17,868 nucleotides of DNA from a virus (lineage: Duplodnaviria > Heunggongvirae > Uroviricota > Caudoviricetes), in the IMG/VR virus record IMGVR_UViG_2698536484_000013, positions 1 to 17,868 of that record. The stretch is one strand, 5' to 3'. Position numbers and translations under genes: made by a program. Below, piece after piece: positions 10,912-14,620 of the stretch. Every line of letters begins with the position of its first letter. Within the stretch, counting starts at the first letter, position 1. Below the pieces are notes generated by a model that made no database searches, was not told the origin of the DNA, and saw nothing but the letters and a program-made list of their open reading frames with translations.

Positions 10912-11585
10912 TGGAACCCACAATTTATCACCGTATCGACGGTACCAAATACAGGAATGTCTGGGTTGTTGGTGATCTGCATGGTTGCTACACCAGACTG
11001 ATGTCCGAACTCCATCGTGTGGATTTTGACCCGGCGCAGGATTTACTGATATCGGTCGGCGACCTTATCGATCGCGGTACTGAAAATGTCGAATGTCTGG
11101 AACTATTGCAGATGCCCTGGTTCAGGGCAGTGATGGGGAACCATGAGCGGTTGATGCTCGATGCGTTAAGTCCTGATGGCAACGTGAATAACTGGCTAAT
11201 GAATGGCGGACAATGGTTCTTCATGCTGGACACTGATCAGGAAATATTAGCCAGGGCGCTGGTGGAGCTGGTAAAGCGTCTGCCCTATATCATTGAGTTG
11301 AACACCGGGCAAGAAACTATCGTTATAGCCCATGCCGACTATCCGGATAATGAATACCAATTCGGTAAGGAGGTGCCGCTTTTCAACGTTGTCTGGGCGC
11401 GCGAGCGTATCAGTGATTCGATGGATGATATTGGTGGCGAAATTTCGGGCGCAGATCGTTTTATCTTTGGTCACACTCCGGTGAAAAGCCCGAAGACATT
11501 CTGGGATCAGCAGTATATCGACACTGGTGCCGTATTTTGCGGAAACCTGACATTGATGAAAGTGAAAGGTGATGGTGCAGCATGA
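10908..11585 (+). CDS. Ser/Thr protein phosphatase, lambda-PPase (NinI)-like metallophosphoesterase
   Basis: GDLHGC, GDLIDRG and GNHE metallophosphatase motifs; near-collinear with lambda phosphatase as recalled ([20 protein letters not shown]...[14 protein letters not shown]). Start ATG 10908 overlaps the upstream stop; the ORF track start 10893 is less likely. Would correspond to the P1 phosphatase gene if the P1-like context holds. Confidence 0.9.
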
Positions 11586-12283
11586 AGATTGCTTTAGTTT
11601 TTCGCTCTGGTGGTGACTATAACGCTTCCGATGTGCAGTGGCTGGTTAATCAACTGCCAAAAGGCTATGAAATTATTTGCCTGACAGACCTGAAGCGTTT
11701 ACATGTACCTGGCGTCAAAGTTGTCCCATTGATCAACCAGTGGCAAAAGTGCCGTGGCTGGTGGGCGAAAATCGAGTTGTTCCGACCGGATATAACCGAT
11801 GATCTGTTCTATCTGGATTTGGACACGGTTATTGCCGGTGATATACGCCCAATCCTAGAGCATCCACCAACCAGCTTCACCATGCTTAGGGATTTTTACC
11901 ATCCACAATATCGTGGCAGCGGTGCCCTGTGGATACCAAATAGTGTTAAAGCGCATATCTGGAGTTCATTCTGGCAAGATCCGGAAGGTTGGATTTCTCG
12001 TTGTGTCACTACTGAGTGCTGGGGTGACCAGGGGTTCTTACGAAAGGTTATGGGCGATGATACACCAGCATTTCAGGATCTGTATCCAGGATGGTTTGTA
12101 AGTTACAAGGCCGATGTTGTGGAACCTGGTTCAAAATATGCGAGCGCGCGTTACTCCAGGGGGAATGGGGCATTACCAAAAGACTGCCGAATAATCTTTT
12201 TCCACGGCAAACCGCGACCTCGCGAAGTGTCAGAGGATTGGCTTCCCCTTATCAGCTCATTTTTTGAGCGAGAATCAGAATAA
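11582..12283 (+). CDS. GT-A fold glycosyltransferase-like protein (GT8-like: DxD and HxxGxxKP motifs)
   Basis: 233 aa; N-terminal [21 protein letters not shown], DxD in [12 protein letters not shown]-terminal FFHGKPRP resembling the GT8 HxxGxxKPW motif; ATG overlaps the phosphatase stop (ATGA). Family assignment by motif only. Confidence 0.75.
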
Positions 12284-12284
12284 T

Positions 12285-12301
12285 ATTGCTCTAATAATTC
12301 C
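12285..12301 (+). promoter_or_regulatory. C1-operator-like 17-mer ATTGCTCTAATAATTCC (first 13 nt identical to the recalled P1 consensus)
   Basis: Directly follows the stop codon at 12283; forms the left arm of an inverted pair with the site at 12334-12350. Confidence 0.5.
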
Positions 12302-12310
12302 ATATTTTTA

Positions 12311-12339
12311 AAGCGTGATGTACACTCATCACGTTTTTT
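12311..12339 (+). terminator. Rho-independent terminator
   Basis: CGTGATG-tacact-CATCACG perfect 7 bp stem followed by TTTTTT; preceded by AAAG. Confidence 0.7.
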
Positions 12340-12350
12340 ATTAGAGCAAT
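12334..12350 (-). promoter_or_regulatory. C1-operator-like 17-mer in inverse orientation (reverse complement ATTGCTCTAATAAAAAA)
   Basis: Overlaps the terminator T tract; 14 bp upstream of ATG 12365. Confidence 0.5.
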
Positions 12351-12364
12351 CTACAAGGTGCACT

Positions 12365-12583
12365 ATGTGGCCATTCCGACGGAAATATCACTACTGGCTG
12401 ATCGCCTTTGTTACGCCGACCGGCGGTATCAGGCATGTCATCACCAGGTATCGCAACAAGAGACTCACCTTAGCCAGAATTTTACAGGCTGCCATAGGTG
12501 AGGGACTGGATACAAATTGCGTAGTCCTTCCTCCTTCATACTTAGGAAAAATGACCGAAGCACAAGCTAATACGGAACTTTGA
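12365..12583 (+). CDS. Hypothetical small protein (72 aa)
   Basis: AAGGTG 6-7 nt upstream of the ATG; stop is 1 nt before the next start (12585); no recognisable motif. Confidence 0.45.
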   Translation: MWPFRRKYHYWLIAFVTPTGGIRHVITRYRNKRLTLARILQAAIGEGLDTNCVVLPPSYLGKMTEAQANTEL

Positions 12584-12584
12584 A

Positions 12585-13847
12585 ATGAGCACTTCAGCAC
12601 AAAACCAATCAATCGAAAATGTATCTATCCCTGATGTCCTGAATGCCGGTATCCCGGCCATTATCCAGAACATCCGGGCCGCGCAACGCCGCGTTAGTTG
12701 TGATGACCTCACAGCACGTTTTTTTGATAATGCGGTTCAGTCAGCGGAGATGCTTCACGCACAGCTTATTGATGTTTATAACGCAGAAGCTGATAGCCAT
12801 AACTCCCTGGTAGATGCAGCTGAAAATATGCAGTTGGATCTCGGTCTGAAGGGTAAAGAAATTGAAGAGCTTCAGCTGCAAATTGAACATTTGAAACGCC
12901 AGCAACAGGACGCGATCGACGATGCGACGCATGACGCCAACCAGCGTGCTGATAATGCCGAACGTATAAGCATTGAGCTGGAAACAAAACTCAATGGAAT
13001 GACCGCGATGGTTGAACTGCGGAACTCACAGATTTCAACGCTAAAATCTCAATATAAAGAGATCATGAAACTTGATCCTTTTAACCTTGAGAAACGCTAT
13101 AACAAAGCTAAAAGCGAGCGACAGGAACTGCGTAAGCAGGTCGCCGACCTTAACCAACAGCTCAAAAAAACTATTAAAGATGCAAGCGAAGCGCGCGTGG
13201 CATTTGCTAATAAAAAAGCAGAGGTTACCGCGCTGGTTAATGAGAATGCCAAATTTGCGACGCTCAAGAAGGAAATGTATGGCATTACTGAGCGCCGTTT
13301 CCCTGCAAGCAAACTTCATCCGACGTTAGGGCAAATCTCCTTCTTCCCGCGCCTCCTGGCTTATGGGATCTCATCGCCTAAAGAGTTCAATAACGAGCGT
13401 CCTTATATCGTTTCTAAGCTGGACTTTGCTTATCAGTTCTGCTGCGACATGGGCTATGCCATTGATATCCGAATCAACGAATGGTTGATGCCAAACTTCC
13501 AGCCGCTGGCCATTTTCCGCGAGTTCCAGCCGGAAGGTTGGGTAGAGTTCTTCCATGAATTGATCTGTAAAGAGATGGAAAGCCGCCGCCCGGAACTGGT
13601 CCGCCGTGTCGAGTGGGCGCAAGAGGTTATGTTGGCAGATGCAGAGCTGCCGTTCGAACCGGAATTTATTGATGATCTGGCAGCTAAAGGGCTGCATACC
13701 CTGTTTGATGTGGTTACCCGCCGTCATGAGCAGTTGGTTGTCGAATTGGGTTTAGAGGAAACAGCGGCAAGAAGACTTCTCGATGTTTGCTATGCACGTA
13801 GCGATGCATGGGAAAAAGAGAACGGCGGCACTATTTACGTTCGCTGA
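12585..13847 (+). CDS. Coiled-coil protein with C-terminal globular domain (function unknown)
   Basis: 420 aa; residues ~60-230 are heptad-rich (LQLQIEHLKRQQQD..., RQELRKQVADLNQQLKK); C-terminal half aromatic/Cys rich; followed by a strong terminator. Confidence 0.85.
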   Translation: MSTSAQNQSIENVSIPDVLNAGIPAIIQNIRAAQRRVSCDDLTARFFDNAVQSAEMLHAQLIDVYNAEADSHNSLVDAAENMQLDLGLKGKEIEELQLQIEHLKRQQQDAIDDATHDANQRADNAERISIELETKLNGMTAMVELRNSQISTLKSQYKEIMKLDPFNLEKRYNKAKSERQELRKQVADLNQQLKKTIKDASEARVAFANKKAEVTALVNENAKFATLKKEMYGITERRFPASKLHPTLGQISFFPRLLAYGISSPKEFNNERPYIVSKLDFAYQFCCDMGYAIDIRINEWLMPNFQPLAIFREFQPEGWVEFFHELICKEMESRRPELVRRVEWAQEVMLADAELPFEPEFIDDLAAKGLHTLFDVVTRRHEQLVVELGLEETAARRLLDVCYARSDAWEKENGGTIYVR

Positions 13848-13867
13848 CAGTTACAGTGTCACTTTTA

Positions 13868-13900
13868 ATGCTGGTGGAGTGCGCCCACCAGCATTTTTTT
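13868..13900 (+). terminator. Rho-independent terminator
   Basis: ATGCTGGTGG-agtgcgc-CCACCAGCAT 10 bp perfect stem followed by TTTTTT. Confidence 0.75.
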
Positions 13901-13919
13901 CGTCCAATGAGGAGGGCAT

Positions 13920-14426
13920 TTGAGTATTTTCAATAAACATGCACACCAGGAACGTCCGTATATCGTCATAGTCGATATTGATGGAACAATATCAGAGGCA
14001 ACTGAAGACAGACTGCATTTGCTTCCGCCACCAGGTAAAGGTGCATTAACAAAGGACTGGAACGAGTTTAATCTCGCCTGTGACACCGATACTCCCATTA
14101 CTCCAGTTATTGATATGGTGCGCCAGTTATTTAACGTTTACACGGTCTGGTTTGTAACCGGGCGCTGTGAGATCGCAAGGGATAAAACACGAGCCTGGCT
14201 GCGGAAGTACGTAACAAACGGGGCTGAGCCTTTGCTATCTATGCGTCCTGCCACCGATGACACAAATGACGGCCCAGCAAAGATTGATCTCCTTAAGAAA
14301 ATTGGTCTAAGTAAAATCGCGTTCGCGCTGGAAGATAAGATTGAAGTGGCGCGTGTTTTCAGGAGGCACGGCGTGCTTACGTTAATGGTCAGGGAGTATG
14401 AAAATGCGCTTCTTCACCAACAATAA
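13920..14426 (+). CDS. HAD-superfamily phosphatase (DxDGT motif)
   Basis: 168 aa; motif I VIVDIDGTISE near the N-terminus, motif II VWFVTGR, downstream Lys and acidic motifs (DLLKK, LEDK). The only in-frame start upstream of motif I is TTG 13920, with GAGGAGGG SD. Confidence 0.75.
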   Translation: MSIFNKHAHQERPYIVIVDIDGTISEATEDRLHLLPPPGKGALTKDWNEFNLACDTDTPITPVIDMVRQLFNVYTVWFVTGRCEIARDKTRAWLRKYVTNGAEPLLSMRPATDDTNDGPAKIDLLKKIGLSKIAFALEDKIEVARVFRRHGVLTLMVREYENALLHQQ

Positions 14427-14442
14427 TTGCTCTAATAAATCT
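14426..14442 (+). promoter_or_regulatory. C1-operator-like 17-mer ATTGCTCTAATAAATCT (16/17 to recalled P1 consensus)
   Basis: Begins on the last base of the HAD gene stop codon; best of the four matches. Confidence 0.55.
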
Positions 14443-14524
14443 TGATTTTTAAAACAGAGAAAGTGAAAATAAAAACATGCCGCAAGGCGCGGCATGTATC
14501 CAATCAATCACAGGAGCTGAAAAT

Positions 14525-14611
14525 ATGAACACGGCATTCAAAATCATTATGGCCGCGATCTATTTCTGGCTGTTCTCTATCACTTTTGGCGGCATCGTCG
14601 CACATGGGTAA
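14525..14611 (+). CDS. Possible 28-aa hydrophobic micropeptide
   Basis: MNTAFKIIMAAIYFWLFSITFGGIVAHG; CAGGAG SD 8 nt upstream of the ATG; one predicted transmembrane helix. Too short to be confident. Confidence 0.3.
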   Translation: MNTAFKIIMAAIYFWLFSITFGGIVAHG

Positions 14612-14620
14612 GGGGGATGC

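Follow-up and report, generated by a model that had tools for sequence, protein, structure and literature searches.

The two open reading frames at 12585-14426 of the window (the whole stretch of 17,868 nucleotides analysed here) are, by sequence, pmgS and pap of a P1/P7-type phage-plasmid. Taken jointly, the evidence is probably best explained by a pmgR-pmgS-pap early operon of which both genes form the distal part, with Pap as a 3'-phosphatase of the T4 Pnkp type and PmgS as a DNA-transaction protein. Both genes are already catalogued (annotated 2004); the finding is real but ordinary and, since it mostly re-discovers known P1 genes, opens no new question. Whereas identities, domains, motifs, operon signals and gene contexts can be read directly, we infer the biological roles, the substrates, the binding of DNA and that the terminator attenuates transcription.

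Identity of the interval and gene organization

The window represents a Punavirus with 99.5 % DNA identity to Salmonella phage SJ46, 99.0 % to P7 and 98.3 % to P1. Both reading frames of a preliminary description made from the letters of the sequence are present at the positions given there, i.e., 12585-13847 (plus strand, 420 aa, ATG) and 13920-14426 (plus strand, 168 aa, TTG). The DNA shares 98-99.5 % identity with P1, P7 and SJ46 across 2256 bp, the matching stretch carrying the annotations pmgS and pap, and the counterparts in these phages (P1 PmgS and Pap, AAQ14063 and AAQ14064; P7 ShtB and Pap; the SJ46 homologues) are essentially identical (PmgS 99.3 % to P1 PmgS; Pap 98 % to Pap of P1 and P7). 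P1, P7 and SJ46 also share with the window the order pmgR-pmgS-terminator-pap-Op88, the TTG start and the C1 operators. Substitutions relative to P1 and P7 are few; Pap carries T115, where P1 and P7 have R115 and every relative has Arg. The preliminary description had missed both the identity of these known P1 genes and the helix-hairpin-helix (HhH) module of PmgS. The features of the region are as follows.

12285-12301, plus strand: C1 repressor operator (P1 OpmgRa/Op86a), 3 mismatches to the consensus, overlapping the -35 of PpmgR
12286-12314, plus strand: sigma-70 promoter PpmgR, predicted by transfer of the P1 annotation
12334-12350, minus strand: C1 repressor operator (P1 OpmgRb/Op86b), consensus match and P1 annotation
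12365-12583, plus strand: pmgR (P1 annotation; PMC9024508)
12585-13847, plus strand: pmgS, 420 aa, its ATG one base past the pmgR stop codon
12705-13280, plus strand: PmgS residues 41-232, coiled-coil-like helical arm (AlphaFold2 model, mean pLDDT 74.7)
13281-13634, plus strand: PmgS residues 233-350, alpha/beta domain specific to the family, in which helices follow three strands
13638-13823, plus strand: PmgS residues 352-413, (HhH)2 domain of the Rad51-N-terminal-domain/RpoA-alphaCTD/NusA-AR type, putative DNA-binding module
13867-13900, plus strand: intrinsic terminator separating pmgS from pap, with a stem of 11 bp, a loop of 7 nt and a T-run
13909-13916, plus strand: Shine-Dalgarno sequence of pap, GAGGAGGG, read from the sequence (AAGGAGGG at the same place in Cronobacter phage JK004)
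13920-14426, plus strand: pap, initiated at TTG, encoding a stand-alone HAD (DxDxT) phosphatase of 168 aa (T4 Pnkp type, Pfam HAD_PNKP)
14426-14442, plus strand: C1 repressor operator (P1 OpmgT/Op88), one mismatch, P1 and P7 annotation

Transcription and translation signals

Transcription of pmgR-pmgS-pap would begin at the sigma-70 promoter PpmgR, the region of which aligns with that of P1 free of gaps and with a sole difference within the -10 (TAAAGC in the window, TAAAAC in P1). In the prophage state, C1 repressor bound to the two flanking operators would silence PpmgR. The C1 operator consensus is matched 4 times in the window compared to 0.06 matches expected, and the most distal of the listed operators, OpmgT/Op88, overlaps the final base of the pap stop codon, where the next early operon begins. 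Since PpmgR is under C1 control, expression is to be expected on induction or infection rather than from a late (Lpa-dependent) promoter. In RNA-seq of P1vir, expression of pap and pmgS changes in the same direction (bioRxiv 10.64898/2025.12.28.696737).

The strong terminator proposed in the preliminary description, with a stem of 10 bp, was recovered with 11 pairs: the hairpin at 13867-13895 (6 G-C pairs) is followed by a T-run, and its folding energy when folded alone (dG -18.1 kcal/mol, z -4.9) was reached by none of 200 shuffled sequences. In Cronobacter phage JK004 (PmgS 69 %, Pap 74 % identical) the hairpin is kept by compensatory changes of the stem from GCTGGTGG/CCACCAGC to GCTGATGGG/CCCATCGGC; the Shine-Dalgarno sequence and the TTG start are likewise kept at this protein identity of ~70 %. 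Conversely, locus L090 contains neither pap nor the terminator. The G+C-rich hairpin, the U-run directly behind it and the conserved structure are those of a Rho-independent terminator, termination itself being predicted from the sequence. The terminator behind pmgS would thus pass only part of the transcripts on into pap by read-through.

A pap-specific promoter was not found in a crude consensus scan. A conserved GTGTCACTT behind the stop codon of pmgS was considered as the -22 box of a late promoter for pap and discarded, with 18 matches versus 24 expected and no -10 at the usual spacing.

The TTG start of pap is indeed obligatory, as had been proposed, because an in-frame TGA lies at 13908-13910 and no other ATG, GTG or TTG follows 13920 before the DIDGT codons are reached; the start is identical in the records of P1 and P7. 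Pap is probably formed at low level, since the TTG start is weak despite the strong Shine-Dalgarno sequence.

Pap, a stand-alone phosphatase of the T4 Pnkp type

The assignment of the second reading frame to the HAD phosphatases was based on a DxDGT motif, which is present as DIDGT at residues 19-23. Pap matches Pfam HAD_PNKP (PF25109; 43.3 bits at a gathering cut-off of 27.6, E 5.1e-11) as well as PHROG 415 (E 3.4e-56), and the Pap family profile aligns residue by residue with Capnocytophaga Pnkp1 (4xrp, 4.9e-6) and T4 Pnkp (5uj0, 1.7e-5; 1ltq, 1.2e-4). Pap thus has the DxDxT acylphosphatase family in common with the 3'-phosphatase domain of T4 Pnkp (1LTQ, 5UJ0) and with Pnkp1 (4XRP). The nucleophile Asp, the acid/base Asp, Ser/Thr-Gly-Arg, Asp-x3-Lys, the metal-binding Asp and a CDTD segment all align. 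Among the 11 sequences of the Pap alignment, 10 share the conserved motif I (D19-I-D21-G-T23; T4 D165-V-D167-G-T; columns of at least 90 %), the exception being P0043, the N-terminal region of which is unaligned. Motif II contains the invariant T80, with T80-G-R82 corresponding to T4 S211-G-R213 within V-(S/T)-G-R, and motif III the invariant K121 (T4 K258) together with D117 (T4 D254). In motif IV, the invariant E138-D139 correspond to T4 D277-D278, Glu replacing the first Asp; D278 is a metal ligand of T4 Pnkp (residue roles from PMC3592404). Since motifs I-IV all align by profile with T4 Pnkp and Pnkp1, the HAD assignment, which the preliminary description had made dependent on such an alignment of motifs II-IV, stands.

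By homology with T4 Pnkp, D19 would attack the terminal phosphate to form an aspartyl-phosphate, D21 would serve as general acid/base, T80 and K121 would hold the phosphate oxygens, and D139 together with D19 would bind Mg2+. Pap differs from T4 Pnkp in motif IV (E-D-K versus D-D-R), in an insert after motif I that is ~10 residues longer, and in being a stand-alone protein of 168 aa with predicted activity that lacks the 5'-kinase domain. Accordingly, it covers only positions 156-292 of the 295 positions of the T4-like PHROG 505 profile and, within 1LTQ, aligns with the phosphatase portion alone. As an N-terminal P-loop 5'-kinase domain is missing, pap is wrongly named "polynucleotide kinase".

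Two functions had been put forward for the HAD enzyme. Provision of the putative glycosyltransferases (PmgQ, PmgO/PmgP and the ORF at 2792-3790) by a sugar-phosphate phosphatase might be suggested by glycosyltransferase-like genes nearby: PmgQ matches PHROG 1962 ("glycosyltransferase"), and there are weak MptE-like and GT1 matches. However, Pap has no match at E <= 0.1 to Cof, HAD_2 or a similar sugar-phosphatase family and shows no evident large cap domain, and the four motifs together with the CDTD segment align with T4 Pnkp. Moreover, C1 operators and terminator place pap in an operon different from that of the glycosyltransferase genes, and L090 has lost pap while keeping pmgQ and ppp. This function is hence scarcely credible. 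The other one, a polynucleotide 3'-phosphatase, fits on sequence grounds: every family match is of the PNKP type, and homologues are found among genes for nucleic acid enzymes.

Stand-alone Pap homologues occur in 1054 phage records. Among them are "polynucleotide kinase" genes of T1-like phages (Drexlerviridae) and Autographiviridae, which belong to PHROG 415, encode ~150-165 aa and share 33-39 % identity with Pap. Genes adjoining phage Pap homologues encode exonuclease, endonuclease VII, metallophosphoesterase, DNA ligase and dNMP or P-loop kinases, and in one P1-like contig a gene for an Rv2179c-like 3'-5' exoribonuclease lies two genes ahead of the phosphatase. While the homologues of T1-like phages and Autographiviridae are thus situated in DNA-metabolism modules, P1 pap is the isolated last gene of an early operon, preceded by a terminator.

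Likeliest as substrates of Pap, by homology, are 3'-nucleotides or DNA or RNA ends carrying 3'-phosphate and possibly also 2',3'-cyclic phosphate. The resulting 3'-OH would be usable by polymerases, ligases or 3' exonucleases, and Pap may accordingly serve end healing or salvage as an accessory enzyme that the phage does not need in laboratory E. coli. P1, having neither a kinase nor a ligase gene adjacent to pap, lacks a complete repair pathway like that of T4. An RNA ligase partner is not evident in the window, and to our knowledge none is known in P1. The published literature searched contained no assay of Pap.

A possible, if less probable, reading is that Pap is a small-molecule nucleotidase for 3'-(d)NMPs and other 3'-phosphorylated or 2',3'-cyclic nucleotides and not a healer of polynucleotide ends, acting in salvage during breakdown of host nucleic acids or destroying a nucleotide-based signal. 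It draws on a weak match of Pap to class B acid phosphatases (PF03767, 0.019), which is stronger for the homologue of phage Shelby (2.4e-11), on the dNMP kinase gene following the Pap homologue in T1-like phages, and on the small size of Pap, which has no extra nucleic-acid-binding domain. The T4 enzyme acts on 3'-mononucleotides as well. Still, PNKP-type phosphatase domains are by far the best matches of Pap, and the neighbour in other phages is a DNA ligase or exonuclease gene. In addition, the basic residues R31 and R82 are retained, R82 aligning with T4 R213; in T4 Pnkp, R176 and R213 are required for the phosphatase reaction. Nor does Pap match any PADLOC or anti-defence family. The phage phosphatases recently reported to counter RES-type NAD+ depletion are Macro-domain and not HAD enzymes, and hence irrelevant to Pap.

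The element does carry two unrelated phosphatases, as described before, since Ppp, the Ser/Thr-type phosphatase encoded upstream (10893-11585), matches Metallophos (8.7e-16). A metallophosphoesterase is also encoded beside the phosphatase of phage Khlen. Since it has only the first metal-binding motif in common with Ppp, and since the neighbour of the Pap homologue in phage Shelby yielded no Metallophos match, a "Metallophos + HAD pair" is only a lead.

A functional link between phosphatase and coiled-coil protein is not borne out by the gene contexts. In related P1-like elements pap either does not occur or does not adjoin pmgS, other genes lying in between, and in the loci examined beyond the P1 group PmgS homologues are never adjacent to pap. 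pap thus behaves as a variable cassette, which argues against pmgS and pap being a functional pair.

Domain structure of PmgS

PmgS matches PHROG 1660 (PmgS-like) over residues 1-420 (E 2e-195), whereas it matches no Pfam family at threshold. Each of 42 diverse homologues matches this PHROG, too. The long N-terminal coiled coil noted earlier holds in so far as ~230 residues are predicted to form long helices, with a heptad periodicity only modestly above that of shuffled sequences (z 2.5). In the AlphaFold2 model, the arm consists of two helices (41-160 and 166-232), and its sole break coincides with the conserved L163-D164-P165, P165 being nearly invariant among 42 family members. Direct matches to Pfam, NCBIfam and PDB entries (TPR-like, SMC, keratin, L29) were sub-threshold and were dismissed as coiled-coil compositional noise. 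In PADLOC, PmgS matched only the LmuB coiled coil, and Pap, PmgR, PmgQ and Ppp had no match. A long helical arm with a conserved turn is also typical of SMC, Rad50 and LmuB proteins; however, PmgS lacks their ATPase head, hinge or zinc hook, and the weak similarity is confined to the coiled coil. Since this similarity is compositional, PmgS is not a member of these families.

The C-terminal part had been described as unassigned and rich in Cys and aromatic residues. The former still applies to residues 233-350, an alpha/beta domain for which neither a recognised fold neighbour nor a conserved acidic catalytic motif was found. A BFVD fold search gave no significant match. By contrast, the last ~60 residues form an (HhH)2 domain, i.e., two consecutive helix-hairpin-helix motifs, according to both sequence profile and fold. 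Nor is the region rich in Cys, with only 4 Cys in 188 residues, of which only C402 is moderately conserved (23/42). The best profile and structural matches of the (HhH)2 domain are the N-terminal domains of Rad51/RadA. Different from the Rad51/RadA/RAD51C N-terminal domain, the alphaCTD and the NusA acidic repeats, the domain is fused in PmgS to the arm and the alpha/beta domain, and an ATPase core or polymerase subunit is missing.

PmgS most likely binds duplex DNA, presumably independent of sequence. This binding could be weakened or lost in the P1 group, since its HhH hairpin is degenerate (V-E-L-G-L-E, with L-G-L-E for G-I-G), in contrast to the canonical K-G-I-G-E-K-T-A hairpin of distant homologues. 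Both this degenerate glycine motif and the match of 11 of the 42 homologues to Pfam RNA_pol_A_CTD would be compatible with an alphaCTD-like domain serving as protein-interaction mimic that docks to partners of the host alphaCTD (activators, NusA) without binding DNA, by which PmgS would redirect transcription early in infection. Such mimicry is very improbable considering that the Rad51/RadA domains are the better matches in sequence profile and structure, that distant homologues retain the G-I-G-x-K-T-A hairpin typical of DNA binders, and that the neighbouring genes encode DNA enzymes and not transcription factors.

Gene neighbourhoods and role of PmgS

Outside P1-like elements, PmgS homologues adjoin genes either for recombinases (RecT/YqaJ) or for orphan DNA methyltransferases. 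The Brenneria genes are arranged as RecT, YqaJ exonuclease, PmgS-like, Xis and Int, with RecT located upstream in four prophages; those of phiARM81mr are arranged as exoVIII, RecT, Int, PmgS-like and Dam. A gene for an MT-A70 methyltransferase follows the PmgS homologue immediately in two Vibrio phages, and a Dam gene is situated downstream of it in Enterovibrio. No conserved downstream partner emerged from two Aeromonas phages, the genes of which (151 and 141 aa) are unrelated to each other, and the small gene upstream of the PmgS homologue in phiARM81mr is not PmgR-like. A search of viral contigs for related loci yielded nothing with P0081 alone and only near-identical P1-like contigs with alignment A1. 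These neighbourhoods make the label "head morphogenesis" look like a misnomer.

Annotations of PmgS range from head scaffold or assembly factor (PHROG and the D6 record) to "sheath contraction" for ShtB of P7. In-frame deletions of pmgS and pap yielded viable P1 with normal plaques and normal anti-restriction (PMC9024508 Table S3), and both genes proved non-essential by CRISPRi (PMC10695390). PmgS was also absent from the 27 proteins detected by virion proteomics, PmgC and PmgG being the only Pmg proteins. According to these published data, PmgS is neither required for phage particles nor among their proteins.

PmgS could nevertheless be morphogenetic as annotated, acting together with PmgR in head completion and its phenotype being masked by redundancy. 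Such a role is conceivable because pmgS adjoins pmgR, which is needed for head completion, and because this pairing is conserved in P1-like elements, including the distant L003 and D6, where a pmgR-like gene precedes the PmgS homologue. Furthermore, long coiled coils are typical of scaffolds, and the scaffold protein of P1 has so far not been identified (PMC9024508). The role is unlikely, however, in view of the normal plaques upon deletion, the dispensability under CRISPRi, virions without detected PmgS, the C1-controlled early instead of late promoter, the C-terminal (HhH)2 domain, and the location of the homologue in phages without pmgR, where recombination, integration and methylase genes surround it and structural modules are distant. 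Rather than in head assembly, PmgS most likely acts in early DNA transactions, i.e., recombination, replication or modification/protection.

Implications for phage-plasmids and annotation

Lambda phosphatase, which Ppp resembles, opens 2',3'-cyclic phosphates to 2'- or 3'-monoesters, but cannot remove these (PMC2190708). One may speculate, albeit with considerable doubt, that PHROG 1660 as a whole is a misnamed family of early DNA-transaction proteins, all composed of a helical arm, an alpha/beta domain lacking known fold neighbours and an (HhH)2 domain like that of the Rad51 N-terminus, and that Pap, possibly acting after Ppp, completes a split 3'-end-healing route in P1. In temperate phages, the family would work together with orphan DNA methyltransferases or RecT/YqaJ recombination modules, and the healing route would act against host nucleases producing 3'-phosphate or cyclic-phosphate ends.

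For annotation, the widespread label "polynucleotide kinase" of stand-alone Pap-like proteins is wrong, the genes being phosphatase-only, and published genetics and proteomics, the (HhH)2 domain and gene neighbourhoods contradict the PHROG 1660 label "PmgS-like head morphogenesis", which has spread into RefSeq. If it is true that the PmgS family aids phage recombination or DNA modification, it would add a component to recombineering modules of the RecT/YqaJ type; if Pap indeed heals 3'-phosphate ends, it would represent a further accessory counter-measure of phage-plasmids to nucleolytic host defences.

Identity and organization of the pmgS-pap region

Positions 12365-14620 match Salmonella phage SJ46 (99.5 % identity), P7 (99.0 %) and P1 (98.3 %) over their full length (megablast against phage genomes), the genes annotated under the match being pmgR, pmgS (named shtB in P7) and pap. 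Both ORFs were found as in the preliminary description and, given the same layout in these annotated relatives, are genes on record since the P1 genome was annotated in 2004, i.e., features already known:

12365-12583 (+), pmgR
12585-13847 (+), pmgS, 420 aa
13850-13862, 13-nt element GTTACAGTGTCAC immediately past the pmgS stop codon
13867-13895, hairpin of 11 pairs with 7-nt loop and T-run
13920-14426 (+), pap, 168 aa, TTG start
14426-14442, C1 operator Op88

The P1 and P7 records share with the window (i) two C1 operators and a predicted sigma-70 promoter (PpmgR) 5' of pmgR, (ii) the start of pmgS one base past the pmgR stop codon, (iii) the TTG start of pap, and (iv) Op88 immediately 3' of pap. 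All three of these C1 operators are kept in the window (4 consensus matches versus 0.06 expected by chance). Upstream, the window runs collinear with P1 except for a single substitution within the predicted -10 of PpmgR (window 12313), which reads TAAAGC here versus TAAAAC in P1 and is thereby one step more distant from consensus.

An 11-bp hairpin followed by U6 (12310-12337; dG -13.4 kcal/mol, z -5.8), not listed by the consensus scan, is located between the two upstream C1 operators, shortly past the stop codon of pmgQ and close behind the -10 that the P1 record assigns to PpmgR. This hairpin probably terminates the upstream pmgN-pmgQ operon; PpmgR transcripts would begin inside it and so escape termination there. 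A further terminator-like hairpin with T-run on the minus strand (14475-14497; 10 pairs, dG -17.4 kcal/mol) sits between Op88 and the next plus-strand ORFs, and no minus-strand gene for it to terminate is evident nearby.

Terminator between pmgS and pap

The strong terminator proposed between the two genes was confirmed as the hairpin at 13867-13895, which folded alone yields -18.1 kcal/mol (z -4.9; none of 200 shuffles as stable). In Cronobacter phage JK004 (PmgS 69 %, Pap 74 % identity), the hairpin persists with compensatory stem changes, and so do its T-run and, for pap, the TTG start and Shine-Dalgarno sequence; this conservation argues for a functional terminator. The TTG start is indeed obligatory, as an in-frame TGA is present at 13908 and no alternative start codon precedes the DIDGT codons.

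P1-like elements whose PmgS is 52-99 % identical retain GTTACAGTGTCAC both with and without a pap downstream (contigs L087, 5267-5279; L088, ~5290-5303; L090, ~5255-5267). The sequence GTGTCACTT resembles the -22 boxes of P1 late promoters; such matches in the window are not above chance, and no -10 lies beside it at the usual spacing.

Upon loss of C1 repression, pmgR and pmgS would be transcribed by host RNA polymerase, most transcripts ending at the terminator after pmgS and the rest reaching pap, whose translation would couple a strong Shine-Dalgarno sequence with the weak TTG start. The attenuation that we infer here is consistent with P1vir RNA-seq data, in which pmgS and pap change in the same direction (bioRxiv 10.64898/2025.12.28.696737).

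Pap is a variable neighbour of pmgS

The place of pap differs from one P1-like element to another. One of them, from Salmonella, contains neither pap nor the terminator, the C1 operator following ~60 nt past the pmgS stop codon. In another element, a 101-aa ORF without family match separates pmgS from the phosphatase gene (L088, 5360-5665), and in a third an Rv2179c-like 3'-5' exoribonuclease (1.7e-48) is also present there (L091, 5262-5810 and 5823-6128). This suggests that the gap is a small variable island for genes that process nucleic-acid 3' ends. Since, in addition, none of the PmgS homologues outside the P1 group adjoins a pap in the loci examined, pmgS and pap are neighbours rather than a functional unit.

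Family and likely substrate class of Pap

HAD_PNKP is the sole Pfam family matched by Pap above threshold (43.3 bits versus a cut-off of 27.6), and PHROG 415 and PHROG 505 ('polynucleotide kinase') are matched in their phosphatase part only. A profile of 11 Pap family members aligns with Pnkp1 (4XRP, 4.9e-6) and T4 Pnkp (5UJ0, 1.7e-5; 1LTQ, 1.2e-4), equating the following residues:

Residues of Pap and T4 Pnkp equated by profile alignment
Pap D19 / D21: T4 Pnkp D165 / D167
Pap C54-D-T-D57: T4 Pnkp C184-D-T-D187
Pap T80-G-R82: T4 Pnkp S211-G-R213
Pap D117 / K121: T4 Pnkp D254 / K258
Pap E138-D139: T4 Pnkp D277-D278

In T4 Pnkp, D165 acts as nucleophile and D167 as general acid/base, while the phosphate is bound by S211 and K258 and Mg2+ by D165 and D278 (Das and Shuman, PMC3592404). 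Pap has a counterpart for each of these residues; thus, HAD motifs II-IV are supported by profile alignment and the assignment as HAD phosphatase stands. Since Pap has no kinase domain, the product name 'polynucleotide kinase', frequent for this gene, is wrong. Residue 115 (14262-14264) is Thr here and Arg in P1, P7, the representative of a 2547-member cluster and all more distant relatives aligned, corresponding to R252 of T4 Pnkp.

Stand-alone Pap homologues are common (1054 phage records), so that Pap is nothing unusual within its large phage family, and are located in DNA-metabolism modules:

Gene order around stand-alone Pap homologues
Phage Shelby: 'DNA repair exonuclease', phosphatase, dNMP kinase
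Phage Khlen: exonuclease, endonuclease VII, metallophosphoesterase, phosphatase
Phage Xp12: phosphatase, DNA ligase
Phage LAh1: exonucleases and endonuclease, phosphatase, P-loop protein

The gene contexts, together with the family assignment, speak for a 3'-phosphatase acting on nucleic acids or nucleotides and lend no support to a sugar-phosphate phosphatase, one of the two roles initially considered. Overall, the preliminary description is confirmed in its observation and partly supported in its interpretation. Pap would strip terminal 3'-phosphates by aspartyl-phosphate chemistry. The upstream Ser/Thr-type phosphatase Ppp is 64 % identical to lambda phosphatase (as stated in the P1 record), which opens 2',3'-cyclic nucleotides and cannot take off the resulting monoester (PMC2190708); one may therefore speculate that Ppp and Pap could act sequentially on cyclic-phosphate ends.

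In T1-like phages and Autographiviridae, the gene immediately before a stand-alone HAD_PNKP phosphatase encodes a putative metallophosphoesterase or 'DNA repair exonuclease', and a P-loop kinase often comes after the phosphatase (loci L092, 2350-4588; L093, 2468-3974; L095, 1979-4142). This looks like Pnkp split into separate genes; the neighbour matches Metallophos weakly in one of these phages and not at all in another.

A putative glycosyltransferase set, judged from family matches, surrounds ppp: PmgO (9725-10387) and PmgP (10285-10911) with weak MptE-like (DUF115) matches, PmgQ (11582-12283; PHROG 1962 'glycosyltransferase'), and the ORF at 2792-3790, following the DnaB-like helicase, with weak GT1 matches.

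Domains, context and role of PmgS

PmgS alone matches PHROG 1660 only. Exhaustive profile search yielded a family of 122 representatives at 50 % clustering; all 42 members scanned belong to PHROG 1660, with Pfam HHH_5 in 13 and RNA_pol_A_CTD in 11 of them. A PDB search with this family's profile hits the RAD51 N-terminal domain (8e-8) and the RpoA alphaCTD (1.9e-7). AlphaFold2 models show two helices (residues 41-160 and 166-232) joined by a turn at P165, which is nearly invariant, an alpha/beta domain (residues ~233-350) and a helical C-terminal domain (pLDDT 90.9 for residues 228-420). Describing the C-terminus as Cys/aromatic-rich was overstated, with 4 Cys in 188 residues and C402 alone moderately conserved. 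The (HhH)2 module would contact DNA, and the helical arm would give reach or oligomerisation.

P1-like elements carry a PmgR-like gene upstream of pmgS. Outside this group, the neighbours are early-region DNA enzymes: RecT is encoded upstream in four enterobacterial prophages, an MT-A70 methyltransferase directly downstream in two Vibrio phages, and Dam downstream in an Enterovibrio prophage. Gene orders are exoVIII, RecT, Int, small ORF, PmgS-like, another ORF, Dam in Aeromonas phage phiARM81mr, and RecT, YqaJ exonuclease, PmgS-like, three small ORFs, Xis, Int in a Brenneria prophage. A 480-aa E. coli protein (P0002), to which PmgS is 94 % identical across its full length, bears the signature (PF00145) and name of a DNA cytosine methyltransferase; it may be a fusion or mis-assembly, and is of some interest as PmgS homologues of Vibrio and Aeromonas phages adjoin DNA methyltransferases.

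Phages with an in-frame deletion of either pmgS or pap are viable and show normal anti-restriction (PMC9024508, Table S3), and both genes were scored non-essential by CRISPRi (PMC10695390). PmgC and PmgG are the sole Pmg proteins detected in virions. The adjacency of pmgS to pmgR, a gene required for head completion, leaves a morphogenetic role of PmgS as a minority reading; in view of the gene contexts, the non-essentiality, the lack of detection in virions and the early C1-controlled promoter, the label 'head morphogenesis' is unsupported, and PmgS is better read as an accessory protein that binds DNA. What is added to these catalogued genes is thus limited to the domain assignment and context analysis of PmgS, which question its current annotation.
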